A DNA stretch of 64,000 bases from an uncultured Holophagales bacterium (GCA_963842525.1 CAWJGT010000034.1:1-64000); one strand, 5' to 3'; shown: positions 14,843-35,668, counted from the stretch's first letter. The notes: a model not told the origin generated them from the sequence alone. Translations and numbers: made by a program.

Positions 14843-17515
14843 ATGGAGCAGCCCCAAACAACAGCGACCGTGAATTCCGGAATGGCGCTCCCGCCGCCGG
14901 TCCAGGTCCTCGCTCCGGGGACCCCGATTGGCGAGCGCTACGAGATCCGGTCCCTGCTGGGGACGGGCGGATACGCCGTGGTCTACCGGGCCCTGGACCG
15001 GGAGCTGAAGCGCGAAATCGCTCTCAAGGTCCTGCGCCACGAGCGCGTCTCGGCCGAAGGACTGGTCCGGTTGCGGCGGGAGGCGGCCCTGGCGCGCGAC
15101 GCCGCGAGCCCGCACATCGTCCGCGTCTTCGACATCGGGAGCGCCGGTCCTTTCGTCTTCCTGTCCATGGAAGCCGTCGAGGGCGAGTCGCTCAAGGAGC
15201 GTTTGCTCCGGGGGCTGCTCCCGGTGCGCGAGGCGATCCGCCTGGGTCTCCAGATCCTCGCCGGCCTCCAGGTGCTGCACGGGCTCGGCATCGTCCACCG
15301 CGACCTCAAGCCGAGCAACATCCTCCTCGCGGCGGACGGCAGCGTGAAGCTCGCCGATTTCGGCCTCGCCCGGCGCCTCGACGCCGAGGAGACACGGCTC
15401 ACCACCACCACGGCGCTGGTCGGCACGGTCGAATACCTTGCCCCGGAGCAGATCCTCGGGCGTGAGGTGGACCGCCGGAGCGACCTCTACGGCTTCGGCG
15501 TGGTGCTCTTCGAGATGCTGACCGGACGGCTCCCGTTCACGGAGGGGTGCTCTCTCGCGACCCTGGTGGCCCATGTGCAGCGCCGGGCACCCGCCCTGCG
15601 CCGGTTCCGGCCCGAGGCCCCTCGCTGGCTCGCCGCTCTGGTGGCGCGCCTGCTCGAAAAGGACCGCAAGCTGCGCTACCCCTCGGCCGCCGCCGTGCTG
15701 GACGACCTACGGAGGGGGAGGGGCCCCGTGCTGCGCCGGCTCGGCAGGAGGACCGGACCCTGGCTGGTAGCCGGGCTGGTCCTGGCAGCCGGCGCCGCGA
15801 CCGTCATCTGGAAGGCCGACGAGCTGCGGTTCGCCCGCTTCGTGGCGGACGGCGAGGGAGGGGTGGTCGCCTCCAGCCGGGACGGCACGAGGCTCTGGCA
15901 GTTGCCCGGGGTCGATCCCGAGGTGGCCTCGCGGTTCGTCCGCGCCCGTTTGGAAAGGAACGGCCCGCGGCTCCTCGCGGGCTTTCTTCATCGCAACGAC
16001 GACCTCGATCCGCAGAAGGTCCAGACGCTCGTCTTCTGGGGCCCGCAGAGCGGAGCGGCCGTCCATCGCGTGACGCTTCCCGGCCCCGGCGCCCACTTCA
16101 GCGAATTCTCGGACCAGTTCCGGCCCGACCACCTGCGGGCCCTCGACCTGGATGAGGACGGCATCGACGAGATCCTGGTCACCTACATCCACGTTCCGGA
16201 CGCGCCTTCCTACACGGTGCTCTACGAGCCGCGGAGCAACCGGCCGCGGGTGGTCTTCTCCGGCTCGGGGCACCATCGCATCGCCGGAGCGGTCGACCTC
16301 GACGGCGACGGCCGGAAGGAGATCCTCCTGGCGGGGATCAACAACCGCCTGGGATACGTCAACGCCCTGGCGGCTGTCCGGCTGAAGGCCTGGATCGACG
16401 AGGACGCGACTGGTCTGGAGACGGCGGTCTCCCCCGATCTCGGCTCGTGGCCGCTCGAAGAAACGTTCTGGTACGCGCTCCTCCCGCGGGGCATCCTCGC
16501 CAGCCCCGAGGGCTGTGTGACGGCCGACTCTGCGCGGCAGCTCCTGATGATCGCCTATGCGGACAGGCGCCCGCACGTCCTCCAGTACGACGGCTTTCCT
16601 CCCGCGGACGGGCCGCAAGCAGAAGAGGCGAGGCGCGGCATCGATCGGCAGGCGAGCTTCCGGCTGCTGCGCGACGCCCTGATCCTGCTCGGGTCCCAGT
16701 CTCCTGGTGATGCTGGCGACGCTGCCAACCCTGCCGACACTGCCGGCGCCCTGGTCCTGCTCAGTCGCGCCATGAAGCTGGCCCGGCGGTCTGGAAGCCC
16801 TTTCCTCCCCGACGTCCTCCAGGCCGTCCTCGGCCGGGCTCTGGTGGCCGCAGGCCGGACGCGCGAGGCGGAGTCTCTCTTCGCGGGGCTCGCCCGGAAA
16901 TCGGGATGGGGCGCCGAGGCCGCCTTCGTGGCCGCCGAATCGTTCCATCTGCGGGGAGACGTCCGGCAGGCGATCGACTGGTACGGCAGGGGCCTCGTCC
17001 TGAGCGGAACCGGGGGAGCCGGCCGGCGGAAACATGAGTACCTCCAGGGGCTCACCCTGGCCTATGCCGAGCGCAGAGACTGGACCCAGGGCCTCGATGC
17101 GCTCGACCGGTTCGGCACCGCCTTCCCGTCCGCGTTCGACTCCCGCTTCTACACCGAATACCTGCGCTGGAGGTCCGGCGAGGTCCCCGATCCCGAGGGC
17201 CTCTCGGCGTCCGTGGACGCCTCCGACTTCCTGCGCTATTGGCTGCTCGAATTCCGCCTTGCGCGCGGCGAGCCTCCGCTGAGGCTCCTGGCCGCTGTCG
17301 ACCTCGAGGTCCCCCGCTCCTGGGAGAGCCGCGGCGCCCTGCGCTCGCTGCAGGCCGAGCTGTTCGACCGCATCGGCCGCCGCCGTGAGGCGGTAGCGAC
17401 GGCGCGCAGCGCGGTCGACTGGCTGCAGGCCCGGCGCTGGCGCAGCACCTTCGCCCGCGGCCACCTCGGCCTCGCGCAGGAGCGCCTGAAGCGGCTGGAG
17501 GCCCGGCCCTTCTGA
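14843..17515 (+). CDS. Membrane Ser/Thr protein kinase with extracytoplasmic FG-GAP-like and TPR-like regions
   Basis: LGTGGYAVVY, IALK, HRDLKPSN, DFG, YLAPE; TM segment; DLDEDGIDEI and DLDGDGRKEI Ca-binding loops; helical C-terminus. Confidence 0.92.
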   Translation: MEQPQTTATVNSGMALPPPVQVLAPGTPIGERYEIRSLLGTGGYAVVYRALDRELKREIALKVLRHERVSAEGLVRLRREAALARDAASPHIVRVFDIGSAGPFVFLSMEAVEGESLKERLLRGLLPVREAIRLGLQILAGLQVLHGLGIVHRDLKPSNILLAADGSVKLADFGLARRLDAEETRLTTTTALVGTVEYLAPEQILGREVDRRSDLYGFGVVLFEMLTGRLPFTEGCSLATLVAHVQRRAPALRRFRPEAPRWLAALVARLLEKDRKLRYPSAAAVLDDLRRGRGPVLRRLGRRTGPWLVAGLVLAAGAATVIWKADELRFARFVADGEGGVVASSRDGTRLWQLPGVDPEVASRFVRARLERNGPRLLAGFLHRNDDLDPQKVQTLVFWGPQSGAAVHRVTLPGPGAHFSEFSDQFRPDHLRALDLDEDGIDEILVTYIHVPDAPSYTVLYEPRSNRPRVVFSGSGHHRIAGAVDLDGDGRKEILLAGINNRLGYVNALAAVRLKAWIDEDATGLETAVSPDLGSWPLEETFWYALLPRGILASPEGCVTADSARQLLMIAYADRRPHVLQYDGFPPADGPQAEEARRGIDRQASFRLLRDALILLGSQSPGDAGDAANPADTAGALVLLSRAMKLARRSGSPFLPDVLQAVLGRALVAAGRTREAESLFAGLARKSGWGAEAAFVAAESFHLRGDVRQAIDWYGRGLVLSGTGGAGRRKHEYLQGLTLAYAERRDWTQGLDALDRFGTAFPSAFDSRFYTEYLRWRSGEVPDPEGLSASVDASDFLRYWLLEFRLARGEPPLRLLAAVDLEVPRSWESRGALRSLQAELFDRIGRRREAVATARSAVDWLQARRWRSTFARGHLGLAQERLKRLEARPF

Positions 17516-19341
17516 TGCTCCGCCTCGTCATCACCTGTGCCGACCGCATCGTGCGCGTCCCCGTGCCGGCGGGAGAGGCGCGCCTCGGCTCGGCCGCGGA
17601 CAACGACCTCGTCCTGCCGTTCCCCGGGGTGTCGCGCCACCATGCCGTAGTGCGTCCTGTGCCGGGCGGCCTGCTCCTGCTCGATCAGCATTCGAAAAAC
17701 GGCCTCGTCGTCGCAGGGAAGCGCAGGACGGAGGTGCTCCTGGAGCCCGGGGAGAGCGTCCAGATGGGGCGTGCAGTCGTCATGCTCGAACATATCGCCT
17801 CGTCCGACGCCGAGATCGCGCTGGCGCTGGGTTCCCTGCCGGGGTTGACCTCCGCGCGGGGCGGAGTGCGTCAGACCGACGCGCTGTCGGCGGGAGAGGG
17901 CGTCTCCTCGCCGACGCGGGCCCTCCAGCTTATCCGAGACCTCGAGAACCTCGAACATCAGGGGCTCACCCAACCGCGCAACGAGGTGCTCCGCGAGGCC
18001 GCTGCCGTCCTCGGCGCCGAATCACTCCTCGTCTTCTCGCTCAACCGGAGCCAGGAGATCTCCACCATCATCGACCTGCATGGTCCCATGCCCGACGAGG
18101 CCCAGGCCCGCGCGCTGGTCCACTCGGCCCGCAGCCTGGCCCGCGGCGGCGCGCCGGAGCCGCCGCTCCTCCTGACCGCCTCGGCGGACCGCGAGCGCTT
18201 CCTGGCCGTCCGGCTCGGCCCCTGGATATCCGACACCAGCGGGACCGGCTCCTGGCGCGAGGCCTTCCTCGAATACCTGGGCAGCAAGCTGCTGGGCACG
18301 ATGGAGGCTGCCGGAAGCGCGGCACCAAGGGCACTGCCGGAGGCCCTCACCTTCCCGCCCGGCATGGTGCCCGGCAGCTCGCCCGTGATCCAGGCCGTCC
18401 TGGAACGCTTGCGCGCCACGGTCCGCAGCCGCCTCGACGTCCTCCTGCTCGGCGAGACGGGCACCGGCGAAGAGCTCTTCGCCCGCCTGATCCATGCCTC
18501 GGGCCCGACGGCCGGCGGACCGTTCGTGGCCCTCAATTGTGCTGCCATCGCCGGCGACCTCCTCGAAGCCGAGCTGTTCGGCGTCCTCGGCCGGGTCGCC
18601 ACCGGGGTGGATGCCCGGCCCGGGCTCTTCGTCCAGGCCGAAGGCGGCACGATCTTCCTCGACGAGATCGGCGACATGCCGGCCCGGCTCCAGGCCAAGC
18701 TCCTGCGCGTCCTCCAGGAGCGCGAGGTGCTGCCCGTCGGCGGCAGCACGGCCCGCAAGATCCAGGTGCGCGTGGTCTCGGCCTCGAACCGCGATCTGCT
18801 CCTGATGGTCGGGGAGGGGAGCTTCCGGGCGGACCTCTACTACCGGCTGCGCGGCGTCGAGGTCCGCATTCCGCCGCTGCGCCAACGGCGCGAGGACCTC
18901 CCCTTTCTGGCCCTGTCCTTCGCCTCCCGGGCCGCGGACAGATACGGCAAGAGCATCCGCGGCATCAGCCGCAAGGCCCTCCGCCTTCTACTCGGCCATC
19001 CCTGGCCCGGCAACATCCGGGAGCTCCAGTCGGTGGTGGAGGAGGCCGTCCTGCGCTGTCCCTCCGGCGGCACCCTGGAGAGCGAGCATCTCGACCTGGG
19101 AAGCGGTCCCCCTCTGCCGGCCCGGGACGCCCTGCCGCCCGAGACGCCCCCGGCCGCCGCGCCGGCGCCGGAAGCCGGCAGGTTCCCCTCTCTCCAGGAA
19201 CGGGTCGAGACCGTCGAGCGGGAGGCCATCCTGGAGGCCCTCCAGGCGACCAAGGGGCGCAAGACGACCGCCGCCAAGCTGTTGGGCCTCACCCGGCAGG
19301 GATTGACTCTCAAGATCGCACGTTTGAAGATCGAAATCTAG
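17515..19341 (+). CDS. FHA-domain sigma54-dependent activator (bEBP) with Fis HTH
   Basis: FHA (LGS..ND...VSRHH...SKNG), AAA+ (GETGTGEE, LEAELFG, FLDEIG, QAKLLRVLQ, FRADLYYRL, WPGNIREL), C-terminal HTH; start overlaps the kinase stop. Confidence 0.93.
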   Translation: MLRLVITCADRIVRVPVPAGEARLGSAADNDLVLPFPGVSRHHAVVRPVPGGLLLLDQHSKNGLVVAGKRRTEVLLEPGESVQMGRAVVMLEHIASSDAEIALALGSLPGLTSARGGVRQTDALSAGEGVSSPTRALQLIRDLENLEHQGLTQPRNEVLREAAAVLGAESLLVFSLNRSQEISTIIDLHGPMPDEAQARALVHSARSLARGGAPEPPLLLTASADRERFLAVRLGPWISDTSGTGSWREAFLEYLGSKLLGTMEAAGSAAPRALPEALTFPPGMVPGSSPVIQAVLERLRATVRSRLDVLLLGETGTGEELFARLIHASGPTAGGPFVALNCAAIAGDLLEAELFGVLGRVATGVDARPGLFVQAEGGTIFLDEIGDMPARLQAKLLRVLQEREVLPVGGSTARKIQVRVVSASNRDLLLMVGEGSFRADLYYRLRGVEVRIPPLRQRREDLPFLALSFASRAADRYGKSIRGISRKALRLLLGHPWPGNIRELQSVVEEAVLRCPSGGTLESEHLDLGSGPPLPARDALPPETPPAAAPAPEAGRFPSLQERVETVEREAILEALQATKGRKTTAAKLLGLTRQGLTLKIARLKIEI

Positions 19342-19401
19342 GAATCACTCTCTTGATGTGTAGCTCCTTGCCGCAACGCCAAGCTGGCTTGCGCTTCGGG
19401 T

Positions 19402-19416
19402 GTCAAGATCGTTGAC
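19402..19416. promoter_or_regulatory. Candidate upstream activator site (palindrome)
   Basis: GTCAA-N5-TTGAC, with CAAGC-TG-GCTTG at 19380-19391, upstream of a sigma54 promoter. Confidence 0.45.
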
Positions 19417-19459
19417 GTTGCGGTCAAGACTCTCCCGGGGGCCGGAGAGCCCTCCGGCC

Positions 19460-19475
19460 TGGTACGTTGCTTGCT
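19460..19475 (+). promoter_or_regulatory. sigma54 (-24/-12) promoter
   Basis: TGGTACG-TTGC-TTGCT matches TGGCACG-N4-TTGCW with exact GG-N10-GC spacing. Confidence 0.75.
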
Positions 19476-19542
19476 GAAACCCCTCCTGCATCACCTGAAG
19501 GTCGGTCGTTTGCCTGGCGCCGCCTACCCCTTTTGGAGGGAC

Positions 19543-20161
19543 ATGTCCTTGCGTTCCAAGCCACGCGGTCGCAGAGGCTCGGGCTGCGCGCCCGGGGGTG
19601 GTATGGGGCCGGAAGAAAACTTCCGGCAGATCTTCGCGGATAACTACAGGAAGGTCTTCCTCTTCTTCGTCCGGCGCGGGTTTTCGGACGACGAATGCGA
19701 GGACCTCGCGCAGGACGTTTTCCTGCGTGTCTTCAAGCACTTCGACACCTTCCGCGGCGAGGCCCGGATGGAAACCTGGCTGTTCCAGATCGCGGCGAAC
19801 CTCTATCGCAACACCCTCCGCGGCCGGGCCGCCCTCAAGCGCCATGTCCTGGAGGTCACCCTCGACGAAACCGTCCACGAGGCCGTTTCGTCCGAGCTTC
19901 CGGTCCATGACACGGCCGAGCCTGGACCGTTCGAATGGGTGCTGTCGCGGGAGCGGTCGAAAATCCTGCACGGCGCGATCGAAGAGCTCCCCCTGCCAGA
20001 TGCGCCGGTGCCTCCTCCTGCGCGTCGACCAGGACCTGAAGTACCGCGAGATCGCGGAGCTCCTGCGGATCTCCATCGAGACCGTCAAGGCCCATCTCTT
20101 CCAGGCCCGCCAGCTCCTCCGGGTCCGGCTCGAGACCGATTTCGCGGAAGAGCGGTGGTGA
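19543..20161 (+). CDS. ECF sigma factor (frameshift near 19990)
   Basis: EDLAQDVFLRV, ETWLFQIAAN; region 4 LKYREIAELL.ISIETVKAHL; GGAGG RBS. Confidence 0.88.
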
Positions 20162-20243
20162 GGAAGCTCTGCCGGAGGATTGGCGCGAAATCATTCCTCG
20201 CTGGAAGACATCTCTTCCTGGAGGACTGAATACATGCAGCTCC

Positions 20244-20879
20244 ATGCCAGCCGAGCCCGGTGGGAAGCCGCAGGAGGCCTGCGAGTCGACCTGTGAGTCT
20301 GGAGAGCGGTGGATCGAGCAGTGGAGAAGGGGGGGCGACCGCGACGAGTGCCTGCGGCAGCTCTTCACGGCCCACTTCCGGAAAGTCTTCACCTTCTTCT
20401 CCGGGAAGGGCTTCCCGGAGGAGGAATGCCACGACCTCGCCCAGGAGACCTTCCTCCGGGCCTTCACCCGCCTCGAAACCTTCCGCGGCGACGCGCGCTT
20501 CACGACCTGGCTGTTCCAGATCATGGAGAACGTCCGCCGCAACGCCCTCCGCGACCAGACGGCCCAGAAGCGCCAGGGCCAGGAAGTGCCGCTCGAGGTC
20601 TTCGCCGATCCGGAATCGCCCGCCGAGATGGCCCGGATCCTCGCCATCGACGAGCCCGGCCCCCTCGAACGCATCCTGGCCTGGGAGCGGTCGAGCCGCC
20701 TCCGCGAGGCCATCCAAGGGCTCCCCAACCAGATGCGCCGCTGCGTCGAGCTCCGGGTCGAGCAGGACCTCAAGTACCGTGACATCGCCGATGTCCTGGA
20801 AGTCTCGATCGACACCGTGAAAGCGCATCTCTTCCAGGCCCGCCACATCCTGCGCGGCGAGCTTGGCGATCCGGCATGA
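20244..20879 (+). CDS. ECF sigma factor (paralog of the upstream gene)
   Basis: DLAQETFLRA, TTWLFQI, LPNQMRRC, LKYRDIA..L.VSIDTVKAHL. Confidence 0.92.
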   Translation: MPAEPGGKPQEACESTCESGERWIEQWRRGGDRDECLRQLFTAHFRKVFTFFSGKGFPEEECHDLAQETFLRAFTRLETFRGDARFTTWLFQIMENVRRNALRDQTAQKRQGQEVPLEVFADPESPAEMARILAIDEPGPLERILAWERSSRLREAIQGLPNQMRRCVELRVEQDLKYRDIADVLEVSIDTVKAHLFQARHILRGELGDPA

Positions 20880-20890
20880 CCCATCGAGAA

Positions 20891-21075
20891 GGGCAGTAAC
20901 CGCCCATCGTCAACACCGCGGCCGGTAGGTTGGGCAATGGCTGCCCTTCGTTAAGACTTCGCCCCTTAAGGTTGGGCAGTGACTGCCCTTCGCTAAGACC
21001 TCACCCTTTAAGATTGGGCAGCGACTGCCCTTCGCTAACGGTAGGGCTGTTGGTGAAGGGCACAGACTCCCCTGA
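20891..21075. repeat. Degenerate 42-bp tandem repeat (about 4.5 copies) with internal hairpin
   Basis: GGGCA[G]-N3-CTGCCC-TTCG units start at 20891, 20932, 20974, 21016, 21058. Confidence 0.8.
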
Positions 21076-21353: not shown

Positions 21354-21367
21354 ATTCCAAACACCCT

Positions 21368-22292
21368 CTAAGGGTGACCTGGGGCGCCGCATAGAGCTAC
21401 CACCATTGCCAAGCCGACGATGGCGTAGAGCGTGCGGTAACGTGCTTGCAGGCGGCGGATGCTCGGGTAGGTGAGGCCCTCGGCCAGAGTCTTGAGCGAC
21501 CAGAGCAGGTGAATGGGGTAGAGAGCGACGAGGGCTGCCAGGGGACGGGGGAGGATGCCCTGGAGGGCTAGGAGGAGAAGGAGGGCGTGGGCCAGGGTGA
21601 AGAGGACCAGGCTGGCGACGAAGGTGCGGCGCTGGCCGAAGGCCACCGCGTTGGTCCTGATGGCGTTGAGGACGTCGCCTTGATGGTCGCGGATTTCCTG
21701 GGTCAGATGGCCGGCGGTGAAGGTCAGGGCGAAGAAGGTGGCCGTGGCGAGGCCGCGACGGTCGATGGTGTTCCCCAGAGAGTAGCCGAGGAGGAAGTGG
21801 AGGGCGCCGCCGGCCAGGTGGGCCGCGGAGCTGAGGAGCGGTCTGCCTTTCCAATTGAAGCGGGGCAGGGAGTAGAGGGCGCTCAGGGTGGCGATTGCCA
21901 GGGCCAGGCAGAGGGCGCTTGGGCCGAGGCGGCTGAAGAGGAGGAGACTCAGGGCGAGCAGGCCGGCCGTCAGACCGCCGATCTCCCTGCGGCCTACACC
22001 TCTGGCCGTGAAGACGCTGGCGGCCTTGTTCGGGTCGGTGAGGTCGGCGGTCAGGCCGGACCAGTCGTTGAGCAGGAAGATGTGCGCCACCAGGCAGACG
22101 TTGGCGACGAGTGAGGATCGCCAGCGGCCCCACGTTCTCCGCCGCCGGGTGGCGGATCGCGAAGGCGGCGCCGAGCAGTGGCGAGCCCTGGAGAACGAGG
22201 ATCTCCGGCAGGCGCAGGCAGGACAGGTAGCGCACCGCGGCAGCTTTAGCCGCCGAGATGGGCGCCGGGATGGGGATGCTCGAGGTGCTCAT
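21368..22292 (-). CDS. UbiA family prenyltransferase (frameshift near 22110)
   Basis: Multi-TM; LNDWSGLTAD..PNK, YS.P.FNWKG.P, QEIRDHQGD..AIRT Asp-rich motifs; start overlaps the upstream stop. Confidence 0.85.
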
Positions 22293-25200
22293 GTTCCGTC
22301 ATAAAGCCTTAGCCAGAGCGCGTAGCCGACGTCCTCCGACCAGTAGTATCTAGGGACCGTCGCGGTGAGATCGTTGTGGTAGAGGAGCGGCGGATTCTTT
22401 CGCACAAGGGCAAAGTCGTCCTTGGCAAGCTGGCGCAGCACCGCCTGGATCTCCGCAGCGTCGGCCGGTGGGCCTCCGGGCGTCCGCCTGCGCCCCAGCA
22501 GCCGGGCGACGGACACCCAGATCTCCTGGCCTGGCACCGGCGTCCGCATCCGTGACTCGGGCAGCTCCAGCTCGCAGCCGGCGCGCTGGAGGTCGGTCAG
22601 GCGCAGGATCGGGACCAGCGGCGCCATTCGATAGTAGACCCAGACCCGATCCTGGTCGACAACCGGGCGGAGAGCTTCGCAGAGCGCACGGCCGGCCGGC
22701 GGCTGCACCTCGGCCAGCAGCAGCAGCAAGTGCATCTGGATGGCGATGTCGGCAGGGTTCGGATCGCTGCCCGGGTCGAGGCACTGGTAGGCCTCGCGCG
22801 GCGCGAGCCAGGTGCGGTAGAGGCCCTCGCGGGTGCGATATCGGTCGATGGTCGCCAGGGCGGCCGGCAGCCGCCGGCGGTCGTGGCCGGGAGCGAGCCT
22901 CCAGACGAGCGCCGTGTCGTCGGTATCGGGCGTGATCGCGCATCCCAGGGTGCCGATGCCAGGAGCGTCTGGCAGGCCATGGTAGCGCACCAGTCCGCCG
23001 GCCTCGATCTGGCCGGTGAGGTGCTGGCGGGCGCGCTGCAAGCTGTCGCCGAGACTGGCCGGTGGCCGCCAGCGGATCGAGCAGATCGAGCAGGAGAGCG
23101 GTGAGGAAGGTGTTCATCTCCGGGCGCGGCTCCTGGAAGTGCGGCGCGGTCGTGTGAGGCGGTGAGCCAGTAACCCGGCCCCTGCTGGTGCGCACGAAGC
23201 CGCGCCGCTGCCGTCCTGAAGCTGTCGTCGAGGTCCTCGCCGCCCGCCGCCGGTGCCATCCGCACGGTCAGCTTGCGCTCCCCCAGGTAATGTCCCTCTC
23301 CCTTTTCGAAGGCCCAGGCGAAGGCGGTCAGACGGTGCTCGCCGGGAGCGAGGCCGGCCGTGCTGAGCGGGATGCGCCAGCCGGCGGGGCTCGCCTCGTG
23401 CAGCGCATTGCGGACGTCGGGCCGGTCGAAGAAGGTGCGGGAGACGACGGTCTGCCGGCCATCGATGACGACCGCCACCTGCCAGGGGGTTGCGTGGCCG
23501 GCCAGCGCCCAGCCGGCGGCGGCGACCTCCTGGCCGGCGGTGACAGCGGAGATCGGGCGGCCGCCGGCCTCGATGGCGTCGAAACTGCCGCGTGTCCCGG
23601 CTACGGTCAGCTTGCGCTCCGCCAGGTAATATGCCTCTCCGTTCTCGGAGGCCCAGGCGATGGCGGCCAGATGGTGCTCGCCGGGAGCGAGGCCGGCCGT
23701 ATCGAGCGGGATGCGCCAGCCGGCGGGGCTCGCCTCGTGCAGCGTACCGCGGACGTCGGGCCGGTCGAAGAAGGTGCGGGAGGTGCCGGTCTGCCGGCCG
23801 TCGATGGCGATTGCCACCTGCCAGGGCGTTGCGTGGCCGGTTAGCGCCCAGCCGGCGGCGGCGACCTCCTGGCCCGCGGTGACTTCGGAGGTCGCGCGGC
23901 CGCCGGCCTCGATGGCGTCGAGATTGCCGCGCATCTCGAGCATCAGCTCCGCCGGCGCGAGGCCATGCTGTAAGGGAGCGACGAAGGGTGCGTTCCGCCA
24001 GTCCCACGCGGCCCGCATCGGGTGGGGACCGCTGGCGACGGCGAAGATCGCGCTGTCGGTCGCGCCGGTGTACCAGAAGGCGCCAATGGCTTCGATGGCG
24101 ACCGCGGCGCCGACCGCAAGCAGGAAGCACACCCGGCCGAAGCCGCGCAGTGCGGCGACCACCGGCACCAGCATCCACACGAGCAGCGGCAGGAGGTCGG
24201 TCAGGTAGCGCGGCCCCCAGGAGATGCCGGCCCGCCAGTCGGTCTTGGCATAGAGCAGGATCTGGAGGACGACGCCGGCGCTGATCGCCAGGGTGAGGCC
24301 GCGCTCGCCGCGCTCCCCGCGGTCACGCGGCAGGTGCCGCCAGGCCAGGACGAGGAAGAGCAGGAAGGGGGAGAAGACGAACAGCCCCCGCGTCGGGCTG
24401 AACAGCAATCCGCCGAGGCCGGAAAGCAGGTCGTGCTGGAAGAAGGTGGCCTTGCCCACCAGCCCGTAACCTCCGGCGAAGTGGCCGGCCACGCCGAGGT
24501 TGTAGAGCAGCACCAGGCCCATCGGCAGCGCCGCCGCCGCGACGAGCAGCGCCGCCCGGCGGCCGGCCCAGAACAGTCCGTAGGCGCCCAGCGCCGCCGC
24601 GAGGATGACATCCGGAGGGCGGTTGCCGGCGATGAGCCCGCACAGCAACCCCGCCGCAAGCGCCCGCGGCGCGGTGCACGGCCCGGTGAGGAGCAGCAGG
24701 GCGCCGATCACCAGCAACTGAGCCATCCCATGCTGCCACAGAGCCTGGCTGCTGATCACCCAGGTGGTGGTGCCGAAGGCATACGCCAGGGTGAGCAGCA
24801 GTGCGGTCGGCGCCGTCGCCCGGCGCCGCAGCAGCAGATAGAGGAGCGACGCGGAAAGCGCCGCCACGAGCGAGGCGGAGAGCTTCTCCATGACCCTCGC
24901 CATGTGGTCCAGCCGCCAATCCGTCCAACCCCGCAGGTTCAGGTAACCGACCGCGGGGAGGTAGAGCGGCGCGATGAGCACCGGCAGCACCACGGGATAC
25001 AGAGAGATGGTGTGGCCGTCGGGCGTAGACACCATCCAGAACGCCGTATCGCCTCGCCCCTGGGCGGTGAGCGGCGCGATCGGATCGAGAAGGAGGCTGT
25101 GGTGCTGCCAGATCGCGAACGGCAGGTAGCGTGCCGGGTAGGTGTCGCCGGCGCTGATCGCCCGCCCGTTGGCGTTGTAGACCAGCAGGCAGCAGAGCCC

Positions 25201-25314
25201 GATGAGCAGGCTTGCCCACAGCTCGCGCCGGCCGCGCAAGAAACGTCGGGCTTGCCCACGGTCCTCGGGCTGAACGGCGGGTGCAGACCGCCTGCCGCCG
25301 AGGACCGGGGTCAT
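22289..25314 (-). CDS. Large fusion: polytopic GT-C-like membrane domain + two Ig-like repeats + class II terpene cyclase-like domain (two frameshifts near 23060-23160)
   Basis: N-terminal about 10 TM with GDT.P, SQALWQHG, LLFSPTRGLF, WGPRYL; 113-aa duplication; C-terminal QQGPGYW and PDTDDTA. Confidence 0.7.
23250..23930 (-). repeat. Intragenic direct duplication, period 339 bp
   Basis: GCCGGGAGCGAGGCCGGCCGT at 23341 and 23680; repeated peptide GWAL.GHATPWQVA..IDGRQT..SRTFFDRPDVR..GWRIPL. Confidence 0.9.
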
Positions 25315-25405
25315 GGTTTGATGCTCACGTGCGCTGCTTCCTACGGGGTCCTGCTCCACGGGGGGTCCGGCGTACAAGTCCGTGTGCCGGTGGTAGACTT
25401 TCACT

Positions 25406-25687
25406 ATGGCTGAGCTGAGCGTTGAATTCAAGCTTCCTCGAGAGCTTGTGTCCGCGCTGAACATCCCCGAATCGGATCTCGGGCGCCGGGCCAAGGAGTG
25501 GATGCTTCTTGAGCTCTTCCTGGAAGGTGAGATCTCGACCGGCAAGGCGGCGGAGGTTCTCGGTATCTCGAAGGCTGCGTTCATCGAGCTGCTGAACCAG
25601 CGGAACCTCCCTTATCTCGACGCAGGCCTGCAAGAGCTGGAACGCGAGGTCGCTGCGGCCGAGGCTGCTCTCAGCACCCGTGGATAA
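25406..25687 (+). CDS. UPF0175 family protein (putative antitoxin)
   Basis: LFLEGEISTGKAAEVLGISK..FIELL. Confidence 0.85.
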   Translation: MAELSVEFKLPRELVSALNIPESDLGRRAKEWMLLELFLEGEISTGKAAEVLGISKAAFIELLNQRNLPYLDAGLQELEREVAAAEAALSTRG

Positions 25688-25717: not shown

Positions 25718-25945
25718 ATGACGACTCAGCACTTTCATGTCTTGCTTGAATGGGATCCCGACTCGGCGGCCTGGGTGACCTATGTTCCGACGCTGAATGG
25801 CCTGTCGACTTTCGGGGAGACCAGGGAAGAAGCGCTCGCCAACACTCGGGAGGCGATTCTCGGGTATCTTGAGGCAGCAGAAAAGGAAGGGATTTCCGTC
25901 CCCGGGCCCGCGGAGTTGGTGGATGTCGAGGTGGCCGTCAGTTGA
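25718..25945 (+). CDS. hicB: HicB family antitoxin
   Basis: VPTLNGLSTFGETREEALANTREAI..YLE. Confidence 0.9.
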   Translation: MTTQHFHVLLEWDPDSAAWVTYVPTLNGLSTFGETREEALANTREAILGYLEAAEKEGISVPGPAELVDVEVAVS

Positions 25946-26169
25946 ATCGCCTCCCACCGGTGAGCGGCAGGGCTGTCCTTGCGGCTCTCCAGCGTAAGGG
26001 TTATATCCTCACTCACGTCCGCGGCAGTCATCACTATTTACGAAAGCCCAGCGTCACTGCTCTCGTCGTAGTGCCGGTTCACGGGAACCATCCTCTGCCC
26101 GTCGGGACGCTCCGGTCGATTCTCCGGCAGGCGGGTCTGACTGCGGCCGAGCTCCAGGAATCGCTTTAG
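25942..26169 (+). CDS. hicA: HicA family toxin
   Basis: RGSHHYL, VVVPVH, LPVGTLRSILRQAGL. Confidence 0.92.
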   Translation: MNRLPPVSGRAVLAALQRKGYILTHVRGSHHYLRKPSVTALVVVPVHGNHPLPVGTLRSILRQAGLTAAELQESL

Positions 26170-26211: not shown

Positions 26212-28390
26212 GTGAGCCACTTCTTCATCAGCTACACCCAGGCCGACCAGCCCTGGGCGGAGTGGATCGCCTGGGTGCTCGAAGAGGCCGGATTCGAGAC
26301 GAAGATCCAGGCCTGGGATTTCCGGCCGGGGAGCAACTTCGTCGTCGAGATGTAGCGAGCCTCGGCCGGGTCGGAACGGACGCTTATCATCCTATCGGCC
26401 GACTATCTGGGCTCGCGCTTCGGTATGGCCGAGTGGGCCGCCGCCTTTGCGCAGGATCCGACAGGCGAGAAGGGCAAGCTCCTGCCGTAGGGGAGACCGC
26501 CGCCATTGGCCAGATCGCCGCCGCCACCGGGCTGGGAGGCATCGGCAAGACGCAGCTCGCCTGTGAATTTGTCCACCGGTATGGCCGCTTTTTCGAGGGA
26601 GGCGTCTTTTGGATGAGCTTCGCGGACGAGGCCGCCGTGCCCGCCGAGGTGGCCGCCTGCGGCCAAGGCCTGGGGCTCCATCCTGCCTCTCGACCAGCAG
26701 GTCCGCCTAGTGGAGGAGGCCTGGCAGAGCCCTCTGCCGCGCCTGCTCGTCTTCGACAACTGTGAGGACCAAAAGCTGCTGGATCAGCGGCGCCCGCGGT
26801 CTGGGGGAGCTCGAGTGCTCGTGACGAGCCGGCGATCGCGTTGGGATCCGGTCCTCGGGGTGAAGACGCTGCCACTGGATACGCTGGAGCGTCCGGTGAG
26901 CGTCGAGCTCCTGCGCCGCTTCCGGCCGGATGTGCCCGCCGGTGACGCGGCTCTTGGCGGGATCGCGGAGACGTTGGGGGATCTCCCTCTCGCGCTCCAC
27001 CTCGCAGGGAGCTTCCTCGCGCGGTACAAGGACGCCTCTTTCGGCCAGCCGGCAGCCTATCTGGATCAGTTGCGGCGGGGAGACCTGCTCACCCATCCCT
27101 CGCTCCAGGGCAAGGGCTCCGAGATCTCGCCCACGGGGCACGAAGCCCATGTGGCTCGCACTTTTGCGCTCGGCTACGAGCGCCTGGATCCGGCCAATCC
27201 GATCGATGACCTGGCTCGAAAGCTCCTGGCTCGGGCCGCACACTTCGCGAGCGGCGAGCCCATCCCCCGTACGCTACTCCTTGCAACGCTCGGTCTTGCC
27301 GAGGGGGACGCGGACGCGCTCTTTGCTGCCGAGGACGCGCTGGACCGGCTGATCGGCACGGGGCTTCTGGAGAGTGGAGAAGGGGGACGGTTGGTTCTCC
27401 ATCGGCTCGTGGCGATCTTTGCCCGCGGGAGGGAAGAGGAGGGCGAAGCCCGCGAAGCCGTTGAGGAGACGCTCTTCGAGGAAGCGAACCGGTTGAACCA
27501 AGCGCGCTATCCAGCTCCGCTTCTTGTTTGGCAGCCTCACCTCAGATCTGTGACCGACGCCGCCCGGAAACGTGATGATCCCATGGCAGCGAGACTGTGC
27601 TGCGCTTTGGACTACCACCTTGCGATGATCGGTGATTTTGCGGGGGCGCGGCCGTACAGTGAGCGAGCGTTGGCGGTCCGGGAAAAGATCCTCGGCCCGG
27701 AGCACCCGGACACAGCCCAAAGCCTGAACAGCGTGGGTTTCCTCCTTAGAGCCCAAGGCGAATCTTGCGGGAGCGCGTCTCTGCTACGAGCGGGCGCTGG
27801 CGATTCGGGAAAAGGTCTTAGGCCCGGAGCACCCGGACACGGCCCGAAGCCTGAACAACCTGGGGATTCTTCTCCAGGATCAGGGCGACTTTGCGGGCGC
27901 GCGTCCGTACCACGAGCGGGCGCTGGCGATTTCCGAAAAAACCCTCGGCCCGGAGCACCCAGACATGGCCCATTGCCTGAACAGCCTGGGGGTTCTCCTC
28001 CAGGATCAGGGCGATTTTGCGGGCGCGCGTCCATACCACGAGCGGGCGCTGGCGATTCGGGAAAAGGTTCTCGGCCCGGAACACCCGGACATGGCCCGTA
28101 GCCTGAACAACCTGGGACGACTCCTCGAAGCCCAGGGCGATCTTGGGGGTGCGCGCCCGTACTTCGAGAGAGCACTGGAGATCAAGAAAAAGGCCCTCGG
28201 CCTGGAACACCCGGACACGGCCCGCAGCCTGAGTAATCTGGGTTTCCTCCTCCAAGCCCAGGGCGACCTTGGGGCAGCGCGTCCGTACTGCGAGCGGGCA
28301 CTGGCAATCTTCGAGGCGCGCCTCGGGCCGAATCACCCGGACACCAAGATCGCGCGGGAGAATCTGGAGAGCCTGTCCGCCCCGGATTGA
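26212..28390 (+). pseudogene. Disrupted TIR - NB-ARC - TPR (NLR-like) gene
   Basis: GTG start MSHFFISYTQADQPWAEWIAW..LE..G...QAWDFRPGSNFV (TIR); in-frame TAG at 26353 and 26488; GLGGIGKTQLA P-loop; LLVFDN, VLVTSR, LGDLPLAL; 42-aa TPRs. Confidence 0.85.
27630..28380 (+). repeat. 126-bp TPR-coding tandem repeats (about 6 copies)
   Basis: Recurrent GGCCCGGAGCACCCGGACA..GCC....GCCTGAACA (GPEHPD.A.SLNNLG). Confidence 0.9.
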
Positions 28391-28420
28391 CACAGGGGAC
28401 GGAGGGCGCCCTGGGATTCG

Positions 28421-32820: not shown

Positions 32821-33019
32821 CGGGTCTCCTCCTCCTGGATGACAGCATATGCCCCGACAACCCAGAAGGTTGAGTGGTCGGCACTCATATTGTAGAACGG
32901 AGGCTCAAATTCTTCCATTCCCGGGTCTCACTCCCTCCCGCCCCGTTCTGCCTTGCGCGTCTCTTCGGCGTGGGAGAGAATCATCTCCACCCGGTCGCAC
33001 ACCGGCATTTTCACCCCGC

Positions 33020-35668
33020 ATGATCGATACGCTTCCCCAACCGACGAAGGCCCTGCCGTACAGCGAGGAGTCCGAGCGGGCTGTCCTCGGCGGCATCCTG
33101 CTCGACCCGGCCGTGCTGCCCCTGATCTCGGGCCGGCTGCGGTCCGAGGACTTCTACCAGGAGCGCCATCAGGCCCTTTACCGGGCCATGCTCGACCTCC
33201 AGGAGGAGCAAGTCGAGGTCGACCTGCGGACCCTCCAGGCCAAGCTGGAGCAGCAAGGCCAGTTCGACACCATCGGGGGCATCGCCTACCTGGCCACGCT
33301 GGACCTCGACCTGCCCGACATCGGACGGATCGACCAGTACGCCGAGATCGTCAAGGAGCGCTCGGTCCGCCGCCGGCTGATCCAGGCCTCCAGCCAGATC
33401 ATCCGCGACTGCATGGACGGCGGGCTGGCCGCCCAGGAGGCCCTCGGCCGCGCCGAGCAGGCCATCCTCGGTCTTGGCGAGGAGGCGATCCAGCGCGGCT
33501 TCGTCCTCCTGTCCAACGTCTTCCATTCGACGCTGGAGGACCTGGAGGAACGCTCCGGGAGCCTCCTGACCGGCATCCCCACCGGCTTCACGGACCTCGA
33601 CCGGCTCAGCCACGGTTTAAACCGCGGCAACCTCATCATCGTCGCGGGCCGCCCGGGCATGGGCAAGACCAGCTTCGCTTTGAACGTCGCCTCCAACGTG
33701 GCTGTCCGCGAGGGCAAGACGGTCGGCGTCTTCTCGCTGGAGATGAGCCAGCAGGAGCTCGCCCTGCGCATCCTCTGCTCGGAGGCCGACATCTCCTTCA
33801 GCAAGCTGCGCGGCGCCCACCTGTCGTCCAAGGAGTGGACCAAGGTGTTCCAGACCGTGCGGACGATCGGCGACGCGCCGCTCTTCATCGACGATTCGCC
33901 GAACCCGTCGCTGCTGGAGGTGGGCTCCAAGGCCCGCCGCCTCAAGGCGGAGAAGGGGCTGGCCGTCCTGGTCCTCGACTATCTCCAGCTCATGCAGGCA
34001 GGCGGCAAGTACGAGAACCGCAACCTGGAGATCGCGGCCATCAGCCGGGGCCTGAAGCAGCTCGCCAAGGAGCTCGAGATCCCCATCATCGCCCTCTCCC
34101 AACTCTCCCGGCAGCCCGAGCGGCGGGGGAGCGATCATCGGCCGCAGCTTGCGGATTTGAGGGAAAGCGGGTGTCTCGCGGGGGATACATTGGTGACCCT
34201 GGCCGATTCCGGGCGCCGGGTTGCCATCCGGGATCTCGCCGGACAGGCGGGATTTGCGGTATGGGCCCTGAATTCACAGACCCTACAGATCGAGCGCAGC
34301 CTGGTCTCCAAAGCTTTCTGCACGGGGACGAAGAAGCTCTACCGGCTGAGTACACGCCTGGGAAGGGCGATCCGCGCCACGGGGAACCATAAGTTCCTGA
34401 CAATCCAGGGTTGGACGAGGCTGGACGCACTTGTGGAAAAGCAGTTCGTGGCGCTCCCTCGCCGGGTCCCCGCAGCGGGCCGGCAAACGATGACAGACGC
34501 GGAGCTGGCTCTCTTGGGACATCTCATCGGCGATGGATGCACTCTGCCTCGCCACGCCATCCAGTACACCACGCGTGAGGAAGATCTGGCCGCGACCGTG
34601 GCCGGACTTGCCTCCGAAGCCTTCGGATCGGAGGTCCGGCCCCGCATCCAGCGGGAGCGTCAATGGTTCCAGGTCTATCTCTCCTCGACGCGGCACCACA
34701 CCCACGGTCGCCGGAGCGCGATTGCCGAGTGGCTCCAGGCTCTAGATGCCTGGGGCCTGCGGTCCTACGAGAAGCGGATCCCAGCCAAGGTGTTCGAACA
34801 GCCGGAGACGGCGATCGGTCGTTTTCTGCGCCATCTCTGGTCGACGGACGGCTGCATCCACTTGCGGCGCGGCCGGAAGCCCTACCCGGCGATCTACTAC
34901 GCCACGAGCAGCCCGGCCCTCGCGCAAGACCTGCAAGCGCTCCTCCTGAGACTGGGCATCCAGTCCCATCTAGGGATCTACTCCCAAAAGGGGAAGGGAC
35001 GCGATCAGCTCCACGTCAAAATCAGTGGAAAACCCCAAATCCTGCGCTTTGCTGAGAAGGTCGGTGCCGTCGGAGCCTACAAACAGGCGTCTCTACAAGA
35101 GGCAGTTGCCTTCTTGTTAGAGCGGGGGGAGAACACCAACCGCGATGTGATTCCCAAGGATGTGTGGGATCTGCACGTCAGACCAGCCATGAGGGCAAAC
35201 GGAGTGACCCACCGCCAGCTCCATGTGGGCATTGAAACTGCCTATGCGGGCTTGACGATTTTCAAGCAGAACCTGAGCCGGGAAAGGGCTCTGCGAGTCG
35301 CTCTCGTGGCGGGCTCGGAAGCCCTTCGGACTCTAGCTGAGAGCGAAATCTATTGGGACCAGATCGCCACGATCGAAGAAGATGGGAGCGAAGAGGTCTT
35401 CGACCTGACGGTACCCGGGCCTCACAACTTCGTCGCAAATGATCTCTTCGTGCACAATTCCATCGAGCAAGACGCAGACATGGTTGCCTTCGTCTACCGT
35501 GACGAGATGTACAACCCGACCGACGAGAACAAGGGACTGGCCGAGCTGATCATCGCCAAGCACAGGAACGGCGAGACCGGCACCGTGGAGCTGGTCTTCA
35601 TCGGCGAGACCACCAGCTTCAAGACCCGCTCGCATCATGACTACGGGGCCGCCGCCGCTCCCTTCTGA
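33020..35668 (+). CDS. dnaB: Replicative DNA helicase, intein-containing
   Basis: ESERAVLG, GRPGMGKT, DYLQL, LSQLSR, DLRESG/SIEQDAD split by an intein. Confidence 0.97.
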   Translation: MIDTLPQPTKALPYSEESERAVLGGILLDPAVLPLISGRLRSEDFYQERHQALYRAMLDLQEEQVEVDLRTLQAKLEQQGQFDTIGGIAYLATLDLDLPDIGRIDQYAEIVKERSVRRRLIQASSQIIRDCMDGGLAAQEALGRAEQAILGLGEEAIQRGFVLLSNVFHSTLEDLEERSGSLLTGIPTGFTDLDRLSHGLNRGNLIIVAGRPGMGKTSFALNVASNVAVREGKTVGVFSLEMSQQELALRILCSEADISFSKLRGAHLSSKEWTKVFQTVRTIGDAPLFIDDSPNPSLLEVGSKARRLKAEKGLAVLVLDYLQLMQAGGKYENRNLEIAAISRGLKQLAKELEIPIIALSQLSRQPERRGSDHRPQLADLRESGCLAGDTLVTLADSGRRVAIRDLAGQAGFAVWALNSQTLQIERSLVSKAFCTGTKKLYRLSTRLGRAIRATGNHKFLTIQGWTRLDALVEKQFVALPRRVPAAGRQTMTDAELALLGHLIGDGCTLPRHAIQYTTREEDLAATVAGLASEAFGSEVRPRIQRERQWFQVYLSSTRHHTHGRRSAIAEWLQALDAWGLRSYEKRIPAKVFEQPETAIGRFLRHLWSTDGCIHLRRGRKPYPAIYYATSSPALAQDLQALLLRLGIQSHLGIYSQKGKGRDQLHVKISGKPQILRFAEKVGAVGAYKQASLQEAVAFLLERGENTNRDVIPKDVWDLHVRPAMRANGVTHRQLHVGIETAYAGLTIFKQNLSRERALRVALVAGSEALRTLAESEIYWDQIATIEEDGSEEVFDLTVPGPHNFVANDLFVHNSIEQDADMVAFVYRDEMYNPTDENKGLAELIIAKHRNGETGTVELVFIGETTSFKTRSHHDYGAAAAPF
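34172..35458 (+). mobile_element. DnaB intein (429 aa) with LAGLIDADG homing endonuclease
   Basis: Starts CLAGDT after RESG, TGNH block B, LGHLIGDG and FLRHLWSTDG endonuclease blocks, ends VHN before S; lower GC. Confidence 0.96.

Follow-up and report, generated by a model that had tools for sequence, protein, structure and literature searches.

A conserved two-gene cassette of Acidobacteriota: a GT-C/Ig-like/terpene cyclase-like toroid fusion protein and its UbiA-superfamily partner

In a stretch of 64,000 nucleotides from an uncultured Holophagales bacterium (GCA_963842525.1, CAWJGT010000034.1:1-64000; the whole stretch is called the window here), two overlapping genes on the minus strand encode a large fusion protein and a prenyltransferase of the UbiA superfamily. 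The fusion protein combines a polytopic membrane domain of the C-type glycosyltransferase (GT-C) fold, two immunoglobulin (Ig)-like domains and a C-terminal alpha/alpha toroid that resembles class II terpene cyclases. Judged by architecture and linkage alone, the pair is a conserved operon of Thermoanaerobaculia-type Acidobacteriota, and of this we are highly confident. For its function we propose, at a probability of roughly 0.4, that UbiA makes an isoprenoid-anchored lipid, and that the fusion protein both glycosylates this lipid and cyclises its isoprenoid chain at the periplasmic face of the membrane. Our literature searches found no description of the GT-C/Ig/toroid architecture together with UbiA.

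Conservation and domain architecture of the cassette

A genome scan yielded 66 loci (L001-L066), almost all of them in metagenome-assembled genomes of Thermoanaerobaculia or other Acidobacteriota. A UbiA match adjoins the fusion gene in 62 of the 66, or 62 of the 63 informative loci; L023, L048 and L049 are cut off by a contig edge, and L063 has neither toroid nor UbiA. The UbiA gene follows directly downstream on the same strand in 60 loci. The gene order is reversed in L066, with a 4-nt overlap, and L065 carries a convergent UbiA gene whose product is 49% identical. The linkage of the domains to each other and to UbiA, which a previous reading made from the window's sequence alone (the sequence-only reading) had expected, is thereby borne out. 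That reading had also let the stop codon of the fusion gene overlap the UbiA start. The overlap is real, with the UbiA ATG at 22292 lying 47 nt (not 4 nt) inside the fusion gene; the stop was misplaced, as the TGA in 'acATGAgc' is created by a single-base insertion (insertion 3, see below). The overlap recurs in relatives, with a UbiA start codon 17-56 nt ahead of the fusion gene's end in 49 of 57 loci. UbiA is probably translationally coupled to the fusion gene.

The conserved unit does not extend beyond these two genes. No flanking gene family is common to more than 7 of the 66 loci, and the nucleotide similarity of relatives to the window stops at 21366 and 25359, which rules out a larger conserved cluster for the window's clade. 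Between many species-level genomes the cassette is 85-92% identical in nucleotide sequence, yet none of the loci shares flanking DNA with the window outside 21366-25359. This could reflect either very strong constraint or lateral movement within the class.

The N-terminal part of the fusion protein is matched at E<=0.001 by at least 1709 proteins among 8000 candidates scored, and among the matches listed the pattern PD.D..A is present in 117 of 119 non-self relatives; the match of the fusion gene is no chance observation. Likewise, 186 representative clusters matched the toroid piece 23071-22289 at E<=0.001 in a search of 1.84 billion proteins, comprising fused forms of ~900 amino acids and free-standing forms of 340-380 amino acids. 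A tblastn search with three C-domain proteins against a plasmid collection gave no match. One free-standing copy, P0337 (57% identical), belongs to a cultured gammaproteobacterium, Dokdonella soli, and offers a possible experimental handle; it is named 'hypothetical protein' at NCBI and 'Pectate lyase' in UniRef. In another variant (P0141 and P0142, 558-609 amino acids) an N-terminal transmembrane anchor and HEAT repeats precede the same toroid.

The sequence-only reading had predicted the fold of a class II cyclase for the C-terminal domain. The AlphaFold2 model of the orthologue at L017:9642-10634 (92% identical) is an alpha/alpha toroid with a predicted local distance difference test (pLDDT) score of 93.5 and a predicted TM-score of 0.93, in which the DxDDTA motif begins and caps helix 111-120. 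A Foldseek search against PDB gave 21 matches at E<=0.001, all of which fall to 8pak/8paj, to drimenol or drimenyl-PP synthases, to MstE or to the unnamed structure 6ij1. The top matches are 8pak (E 6.7e-6), AsDMS (1.6e-5) and MstE (5.6e-5), and further cyclases follow with ent-CPS (3.1e-3) and squalene-hopene cyclase (SHC; 6.4e-3). Toroids other than cyclases rank below the top cyclases: GH88 (3wiw, 1.1e-3), alpha2-macroglobulin (3.4e-3) and MmpH (5.5e-3). A family profile compared with the PDB sequences found 8pak (E 1.5e-4) and SHC (1gsz, E 2.2e-3), with alignments centred on the DxDDTA motif (PpDaDdTaLv against PADADSTANV and YPDVDDTAVV). Among the 30 nearest clusters in the ESM Atlas, 26 are unnamed hypothetical proteins, and four carry AstC-like_C or SQHop_cyclase_C on some members.

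The (P)DTDDTA motif, a putative general-acid motif that the sequence-only reading had pointed out, is present in the window (Table 1) and conserved in the family. In an alignment of 42 sequences with identities down to 25%, D110, D112 and T114 each reach a conservation of at least 90%, and D110, D112, T114, L116 and W118 form a nearly invariant DxDDTALxW block. The blocks GLYxTW, NPxD, YHxD, YWS and ALWLR are nearly invariant as well. Among the matches listed, 117 proteins bear the motif, in the variants DTDDTA (68), DADDTA (42), DTDNTA (5), DADDMA (1) and DSDDTA (1). Of the two segments earlier called QW-like, HQQGPGYW holds up: it fits Q-x3-G-x-W, its glycine (G28) is nearly invariant in the 42 sequences, and the profile search pairs it with QW repeats of 8pak and SHC. 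This pattern is seen once in the toroid; GQIEAGG lacks the tryptophan, though QIExxGLVRY is conserved.

Free-standing relatives bear on the location of the toroid. An N-terminal hydrophobic signal or anchor is found in 28 of 32 representatives of 300-420 amino acids, seven of them with a strict lipobox, and the remaining four look N-terminally truncated. In another relative, P0165, a cytoplasmic family 2 glycosyltransferase (GT2) is followed by a single transmembrane helix and then by the toroid. The C-terminal soluble domains of GT-C enzymes lie in the periplasm. Because of these three points the toroid is almost certainly extracytoplasmic, in line with the sequence-only reading, and by analogy we propose that the GT-C membrane domain has its N-terminus in the cytoplasm. 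A Kyte-Doolittle scan is too crude for counting transmembrane helices; this topology draws on the signal peptides seen in relatives and on the analogy to GT-C enzymes. In PMC10924467, exported proteins of the 'terpene cyclase/mutase family' are noted in Streptomyces, with no function assigned there.

For the N-terminal part, we modelled the window's own first 720 residues with AlphaFold2 (17 relatives in the alignment). In the model (pLDDT 83.4) a helical polytopic part ends near residue 440, and residues 461-572 and 574-685 each form a beta-sandwich. Foldseek relates the membrane part to the GT-C enzymes ArnT (5f15/5ezm, E 3-4e-4, target TM-score 0.43-0.45), AftA (8if8, E 4.3e-4) and STT3 (6ftg), with E-values from 3e-4 to 1e-3 over the three, which agrees with the GT-C-like N-terminus suggested before. 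No Pfam GT-C family, nor any other Pfam model, matches this part. The NCBIfam model LA_3751/LA_3752 putative glycosyltransferase (NF047440) gives E 2.7e-15 and 56 bits in the window, and 46.7-59.7 bits overall against a cut-off of 200 bits. The first outer loop, after the first transmembrane helix, reads NANGRAISAGDTYPARYLPF and follows the pattern NANxRxIxAGDxxxARYLP, of which the Asn, Arg, Asp, Arg and Pro are invariant in 15 full-length relatives; the invariant Asp, D36, may be the catalytic Asp of the GT-C domain. The two Ig-like domains of the window share 89 of 110 residues (81%). Counted by occurrences of the motif F.DR.DV as a proxy, relatives among the matches listed have one Ig-like copy in 99 of 119 cases, two in 9 and none in 11.

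The partner gene had been called UbiA before, and this assignment holds: Pfam PF01040 matches the C-terminal piece in the window at 62.7 bits (cut-off 34.2; E 4.3e-17) and the divergent copy in L065 at 72.1 bits, and in relatives one frame runs through both the N- and the C-terminal piece. Compared with the PDB sequences, the single sequence matches only AfUbiA (4tq3, E 5.4e-4), and a profile of 14 orthologues matches none at E<=10. UbiA-superfamily proteins carry two Asp-rich motifs with the consensus NDxxDxxxD and DxxxD. In the first motif of the window, N71, D72, W73, D79 and D82 are invariant in the 14 orthologues; Gly stands where the consensus has Asp, and this Gly is at least 90% conserved in 45 orthologues. 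In the second motif, RDxxGD (RDHQGD) is canonical. Among NCBIfam models, those of generic prenyltransferases score best (PRK12875, 50-58 bits; cut-off 205), ahead of models of decaprenylphosphoryl-5-phosphoribose (DPPR) synthase with 13.9-24.9 bits (cut-off 207); all of these scores fall far short of the cut-offs. From its sequence the protein is assigned to the superfamily level, without naming subfamily or acceptor. A prediction of the complex between the GT-C domain (residues 1-445) and UbiA scored 0.00 and 0.00; this is no verdict, and we use it neither way.

Proposed function and competing explanations

The analysis establishes how the genes are built, which folds the domains adopt, that the motif is conserved, that the toroid is exported and that UbiA is linked. 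From this we infer substrate, cyclisation and glycosyl transfer as follows. On the cytoplasmic side of the membrane, UbiA would equip a head group with a polyprenyl chain; the resulting isoprenoid-anchored lipid would in some lineages be decorated by GT2, family 4 glycosyltransferase (GT4), sulfotransferase and methyltransferase enzymes. After flipping of the lipid, the fusion protein would act on it at the periplasmic face. Its GT-C module would catalyse a glycosyl transfer that depends on polyprenyl-phosphate sugars, and the toroid would take up the isoprenoid chain and protonate a C=C bond through the central Asp of the motif, leading to cyclisation. Such a reaction would be feasible outside the cytoplasm because it needs no cofactor. 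A polyprenyl lipid is the common denominator of UbiA, of GT-C enzymes and of GT2 enzymes of the PpgS/ArnC type, and it is the natural ligand of the class II cyclase fold.

Rare fusions and neighbours hint at the character of the lipid. The GT2 domain of P0165 matches the NCBIfam models AglJ (E 2.6e-30), PpgS (5.5e-17) and ArnC (4.7e-13), and is thus of the polyprenyl-phosphate sugar synthase type. In P0124 (1757 amino acids), 830 residues precede the GT-C-Ig-toroid part and are 42-44% identical to giant sulfotransferase-GT2-GT4 proteins, which are encoded divergently upstream of the cassette in L038, L039, L043, L050 and L053. Because of the P0165 GT2, the P0124 fusion and these neighbours, we conclude that the toroid accompanies makers or users of polyprenyl-linked sugars. 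A gene for an S-adenosylmethionine-dependent methyltransferase lies between the giant protein and the fusion gene in L038 and L053, upstream of the fusion gene in L044 and L045, and just downstream in L066. The presence of GT2, GT4, sulfotransferase and methyltransferase enzymes in these fusions and neighbourhoods suggests that the product is a glycoconjugate with an isoprenoid anchor. The sequence-only reading had spoken of a meroterpenoid pathway; the GT2 and GT4 fusions of P0165 and P0124 fit a glycoconjugate pathway at least as well.

Several observations weigh against cyclisation in particular. Pfam SQHop_cyclase_N/C, Prenyltrans and AstC-like_C match none of the 42 family members at E<=1, and the toroid pieces of the window likewise have no match to a Pfam cyclase model. 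TM-scores to cyclases reach just 0.47-0.63, with root-mean-square deviations of 6-10 A, and MstE is absent from the family-profile matches to PDB sequences even at E<=10. The third Asp of the motif is Asn in 7 of the 57 loci in which the C-domain was read (L012, L038, L044, L045, L047, L053 and L058) and in 5 of the 117 motif-bearing proteins; the motif Thr is replaced by Met in L011 and in one of the 117. The variability of the third Asp fits the usage reported for MstE, which in PMC12414744 is described as relying on DxD and not on DxDD. Many of the nearly invariant residues of the toroid are polar (N166, D169, Q243, H293, D295, S306 and R316), which would fit a pocket for sugar or phosphate as much as a cyclase. 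Unless the Ig-like spacers fold back, they would keep the toroid off the membrane. It is glycosyltransferases that recur as fusions and neighbours, and the cassette includes neither a prenyl-diphosphate synthase nor an aromatic-acid gene. Finally, we know of no exported class II cyclase that has been characterised, and our literature searches brought up none. None of the three conditions that the sequence-only reading had set for its own refutation came about. Of the cyclisation pathway proposed from the sequence alone, fold, motif and linkage stand, recognition by Pfam cyclase models fails, the third Asp varies, and the chemistry keeps its conditional standing.

The strongest competitor, possible but in our view rather unlikely, dispenses with cyclisation. 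It takes the cassette for a pathway of lipid-linked sugar donors, in which a DPPR synthase-like UbiA loads a sugar phosphate onto polyprenyl phosphate and the GT-C module passes the sugar to an acceptor in the envelope; the role of Ig-like domains and toroid would be limited to binding the acceptor glycan or the carrier lipid, with DxD either a remnant or a motif for binding. Polyprenyl-phosphate sugars are what GT-C enzymes use, and in mycobacteria the GT-C gene aftB adjoins ubiA (Rv3806c), which suits this explanation. So does P0165, where the GT2 fused to the toroid would be a functional analogue of a donor-making UbiA, and so does the resemblance of the N-terminal 830 residues of P0124 to the giant proteins upstream in five loci. 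The UbiA proteins of L044 and L064 even match decaprenyl-phosphate phosphoribosyltransferase models (E 8.7e-6 and 2.5e-4), but these scores of 14-25 bits lie below those for PRK12875, which itself stays under its cut-off, and the cassette is devoid of phosphatase and epimerase genes. A donor pathway also gives no account of a D-x-D-x-T that is nearly invariant down to 25% identity, nor of the nearest structures all being cyclases.

An improbable further explanation is that the toroid acts like a glycoside hydrolase or lyase, trimming or releasing a polysaccharide made by the GT-C module, as do periplasmic alpha/alpha-toroid enzymes that accompany exopolysaccharide synthases. Glycosidases and polysaccharide lyases are indeed listed among the alpha/alpha toroids in PMC12414744. 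The Foldseek matches to GH88 and to the methylmannose polysaccharide hydrolase MmpH (7qsj), the conserved acidic, polar and aromatic residues at helix N-termini, the UniRef name of the Dokdonella soli protein and the recurrent glycosyltransferase neighbours could all be read in this way. However, cyclases lead every hydrolase by about two orders of magnitude in Foldseek E-value and are the only matches below E 0.1 among the PDB sequences; GH88 is touched by one of the 42 members, at E 0.25, and DxDDTA aligns residue for residue with the SHC signature.

To our knowledge, all characterised class II terpene cyclases act inside the cell and none is fused to a glycosyltransferase; the literature searches found no such fusion either. 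The farthest-reaching version of our proposal sees in the toroids the first family of class II terpene cyclases to be exported, as periplasmic proteins or lipoproteins. Abundant soil Acidobacteria would use them at the outer face of the inner membrane on a glycosylated envelope lipid made by UbiA, cyclising its isoprenoid tail with a cyclase tethered to the GT-C enzyme that acts on this lipid too. We regard this version as unlikely. The family is large, its toroid is overlooked by every Pfam terpene-cyclase model, and it is concentrated in the Thermoanaerobaculia, a common yet almost uncultured soil lineage; its linkage to UbiA is tight and its acid motif conserved. If the proposal were true, there would be an unrecognised class of cyclic isoprenoid glycolipids, possibly new sedimentary biomarkers, and proton-initiated terpene cyclisation would have been recruited outside the cytoplasm. 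With an active toroid, terpene cyclisation would gain a compartment and a class of substrates that are both new to it; an inactive one would still be an uncharacterised periplasmic module tied to the assembly of polyprenyl-linked glycans.

Gene structure, frame breaks and neighbouring genes

Both genes are interrupted in the window (Table 1). The fusion gene starts with the ATG at 25314 (MTPVLGGRR...), and frame 0 runs to ...HQQGPGYWLTA near 23155. Frame 1 contributes HTTAPHFQEPRPEMNTFLTALLLDLLDPLAATG; frame 2 begins with LGDSLQRARQHLTGQIEAGG and continues over ...TPDTDDTALV... to ...ALWLRLYD. Frame 0 then resumes with EHEHLEHPHPGAHLGG, giving a C-terminus as in relatives. The relatives P0003, P0004, P0006, P0013, P0020 and P0111, retrieved with the N-terminal 720 residues as query, are intact and share the residues of the window across the breaks (...HQQGPGYWLTA-HTTA..FQEP..NTFLTALLLDLLDPLAATG-.LGDSLQRAR...TPDTDDTALV...). 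The single open reading frame (ORF) of intact relatives spans 873-1033 amino acids, so the one protein of roughly 1000 residues that the sequence-only reading had pieced together is correct. Its two frameshifts have to be revised to four window-specific insertions of 1 nt, as seen in a three-way nucleotide alignment with the closest two-Ig relatives, L028 and L033. Insertions 1-3 fall into the fusion gene and insertion 4 into the UbiA gene.

Table 1. Features of the two-gene cassette, in positions of the window.
Feature	Position	Strand	Remarks
Fusion gene	22246..25314	-	~1021 aa after discounting three 1-nt insertions; from three-frame translation, intact relatives and nucleotide alignment
Frames of the fusion gene	0: 25314-23155; 1: ~23156-23054; 2: 23071-22298; 0 again to TAA 22248-22246	-	
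Polytopic GT-C-fold membrane domain	23995..25314	-	~residues 1-440; Arg-rich N-terminus
Ig-like beta-sandwich domain 1	23599..23952	-	strands, residues 461-572; Foldseek match to tandem Fn3/Ig 3pdd, E 9e-6
Ig-like beta-sandwich domain 2	23254..23595	-	tandem duplicate of domain 1
Class II terpene-cyclase-like alpha/alpha toroid, beta domain only	22249..23247	-	~330 aa; almost certainly exported; interrupted by three insertions
HQQGPGYW, QW-like (Q-x3-G-x-W)	23167..23190	-	after first toroid helix; from translation
DTDDTA, putative general-acid motif	22910..22927	-	at helix N-terminal cap; preceded by Pro 22930-22928
Insertion 1 (frame 0 to 1)	23157..23157	-	CACCGCC(T)CACACGAC in the window, CACCGCC-CACACGAC in L028
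Insertion 2 (frame 1 to 2)	23058..23062	-	near 23058; exact base ambiguous within 5 nt
Insertion 3 (extra G)	22296..22297	-	TATGAC(G)GAACATG; gives false TGA; relatives read on as ..LYDEHAHLGHPHPGAHLRG
Insertion 4 (inside UbiA)	22111..22111	-	CCTCA(C)TCGTCGCC
UbiA-superfamily intramembrane prenyltransferase gene	21368..22292	-	~307 aa after discounting one insertion
UbiA first Asp-rich motif	22034..22069	-	variant NDWSGLTADLTD (N-D-W-x-G-L-x-x-D-x-x-D)
UbiA second Asp-rich motif, EIRDHQGD	21674..21697	-	E195, R197, D198 and D202 invariant in orthologue alignment

The assembly of the window appears to contain many single-base indels. A phase track based on G+C content at third codon positions shows 84 abutting frame switches over the 64 kb, 42 of them without a suitable stop codon within 60 nt; per 8-kb bin they number 5, 3, 5, 8, 5, 13, 23 and 22, becoming denser toward the 3' end. 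Housekeeping genes give partial Pfam matches (PEP-utilizers_C 212-286 of 293 positions, Radical_SAM 2-61 of 166, LptF_LptG 161-352 of 353, Pyr_redox_2 166-291 of 291). The breaks are densest at 40000-64000. Genes for PtsI-like, MiaB-like radical SAM, LptF/LptG, NDH-2 and ParB proteins match only fragments of their Pfam models. Because intact relatives are free of the four insertions and reading frames break across the whole window, these insertions are most likely assembly errors, neither pseudogenisation nor programmed frameshifting. Programmed frameshifting is ruled out, as L028 and L033 carry none of the four and relatives are uninterrupted. That the frameshifts are true mutations and the cassette a genuine pseudogene pair, dead in this organism, is very improbable: the four insertions are packed into ~1.05 kb (23157-22111), with none in the 2.1 kb upstream, but frame breaks occur window-wide, housekeeping genes included, each of the four events is a single-base insertion, the frames beyond each shift stay open with no further stops or deletions, the cassette is ~92% identical to L028 in nucleotide sequence, and tblastn of window pieces gives amino-acid identities of up to 94% (C-domain) and 90% (C-terminal piece of UbiA).

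About 330 nt beyond the UbiA stop, the intergenic DNA contains a 42-bp tandem repeat (20927-21038) of 2.7 copies with 88% matches. Beside the cassette, the opposite (+) strand encodes at 17515-20879 an FHA-domain sigma-54 activator (17515-19341) followed by two tandem sigma factors of the extracytoplasmic function (ECF) type (~19471-20229 and 20244-20879), the first of which also looks frame-broken. Immediately upstream of the fusion gene, the (+) strand carries in divergent orientation a gene for a UPF0175 protein (25406-25687) and two genes with a 4-nt overlap, for a HicB-like antitoxin (25718-25945) and a HicA toxin (25942-26169). At 26262-28400 (+), a TPR-repeat protein with a P-loop-like start (GGIGKT) is spread over several frames; this is probably one STAND/NB-ARC-TPR gene broken by similar indels. 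Farther away, at 32843-35665 (+), a gene for the replicative helicase DnaB holds an intein with a LAGLIDADG homing endonuclease (Intein_splicing E 1.6e-33, LAGLIDADG_3 E 1.9e-21).

Relation to known systems

Among the closest known counterparts of the toroid are 8PAK and 8PAJ (361-365 amino acids), deposited as 'squalene-hopene cyclase' from the myxobacteria Cystobacter fuscus and Archangium gephyra. They share its size and single-toroid build, and 8PAK is the best match by both structure and sequence profile, with DADST aligned to DxDDT. Identity is 16-17%, and the deposited chains begin directly with the toroid, unlike the fusion protein. No paper on these structures turned up in the literature searches.

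MstE of Scytonema (PDB 6SBB and others) is a monodomain class II meroterpenoid cyclase. Its substrate is a prenylated aromatic acid of the kind made by UbiA-type enzymes, and its gene cluster has such an enzyme. Like the toroid of the window, MstE is a single toroid of ~330-350 amino acids with no gamma domain and with the acid motif ~110 residues into the domain. The likeness is structural (Foldseek E 5.6e-5 to 1e-3, TM-score 0.49-0.57), whereas sequence similarity is undetectable in the profile search at E<=10. The DxD ascribed to MstE in PMC12414744 corresponds to the invariant D-x-D found here. In contrast to MstE, the toroid of the window is almost certainly exported, stands behind a GT-C membrane domain and Ig-like spacers, and has largely polar conserved pocket residues; its cyclase activity is putative.

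With SHC (1GSZ/2SQC), ent-CPS (5BP8), SsDMS and AsDMS the toroid shares the fold and the QW-type N-terminal motif, and its DxDDTA aligns with the D374-D377 region of SHC. SHC and the bacterial class II di- and sesquiterpene cyclases have a beta-gamma (or beta plus HAD) build and either stay in the cytoplasm or sit as monotopic proteins on the inner face of the membrane; the Pfam SQHop_cyclase models that describe this group miss the toroid family. An exported Streptomyces protein annotated as terpene cyclase/mutase family, WP_031517753.1 (candidate 8 in PMC10924467), shows that bacteria can export proteins of this annotation. It comes from another phylum, and it has a twin-arginine translocation (Tat) signal and a C-tail anchor and no GT-C fusion.

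The membrane domain resembles ArnT (5F15, 5EZM) and AftA (8IF8) in its polytopic fold, in the conserved Asp of the first outer loop and in having a C-terminal periplasmic extension. It differs in that target TM-scores are just 0.35-0.45, Pfam GT-C models do not match and the NCBIfam LA_3751/LA_3752 score stays under its cut-off; moreover, the extension consists of Ig-like domains and a cyclase-like toroid instead of a carbohydrate-binding module. The adjacency of UbiA and GT-C genes observed here has a counterpart in the mycobacterial pair AftB-UbiA (Rv3805c-Rv3806c), where a UbiA-family gene likewise adjoins a GT-C gene.

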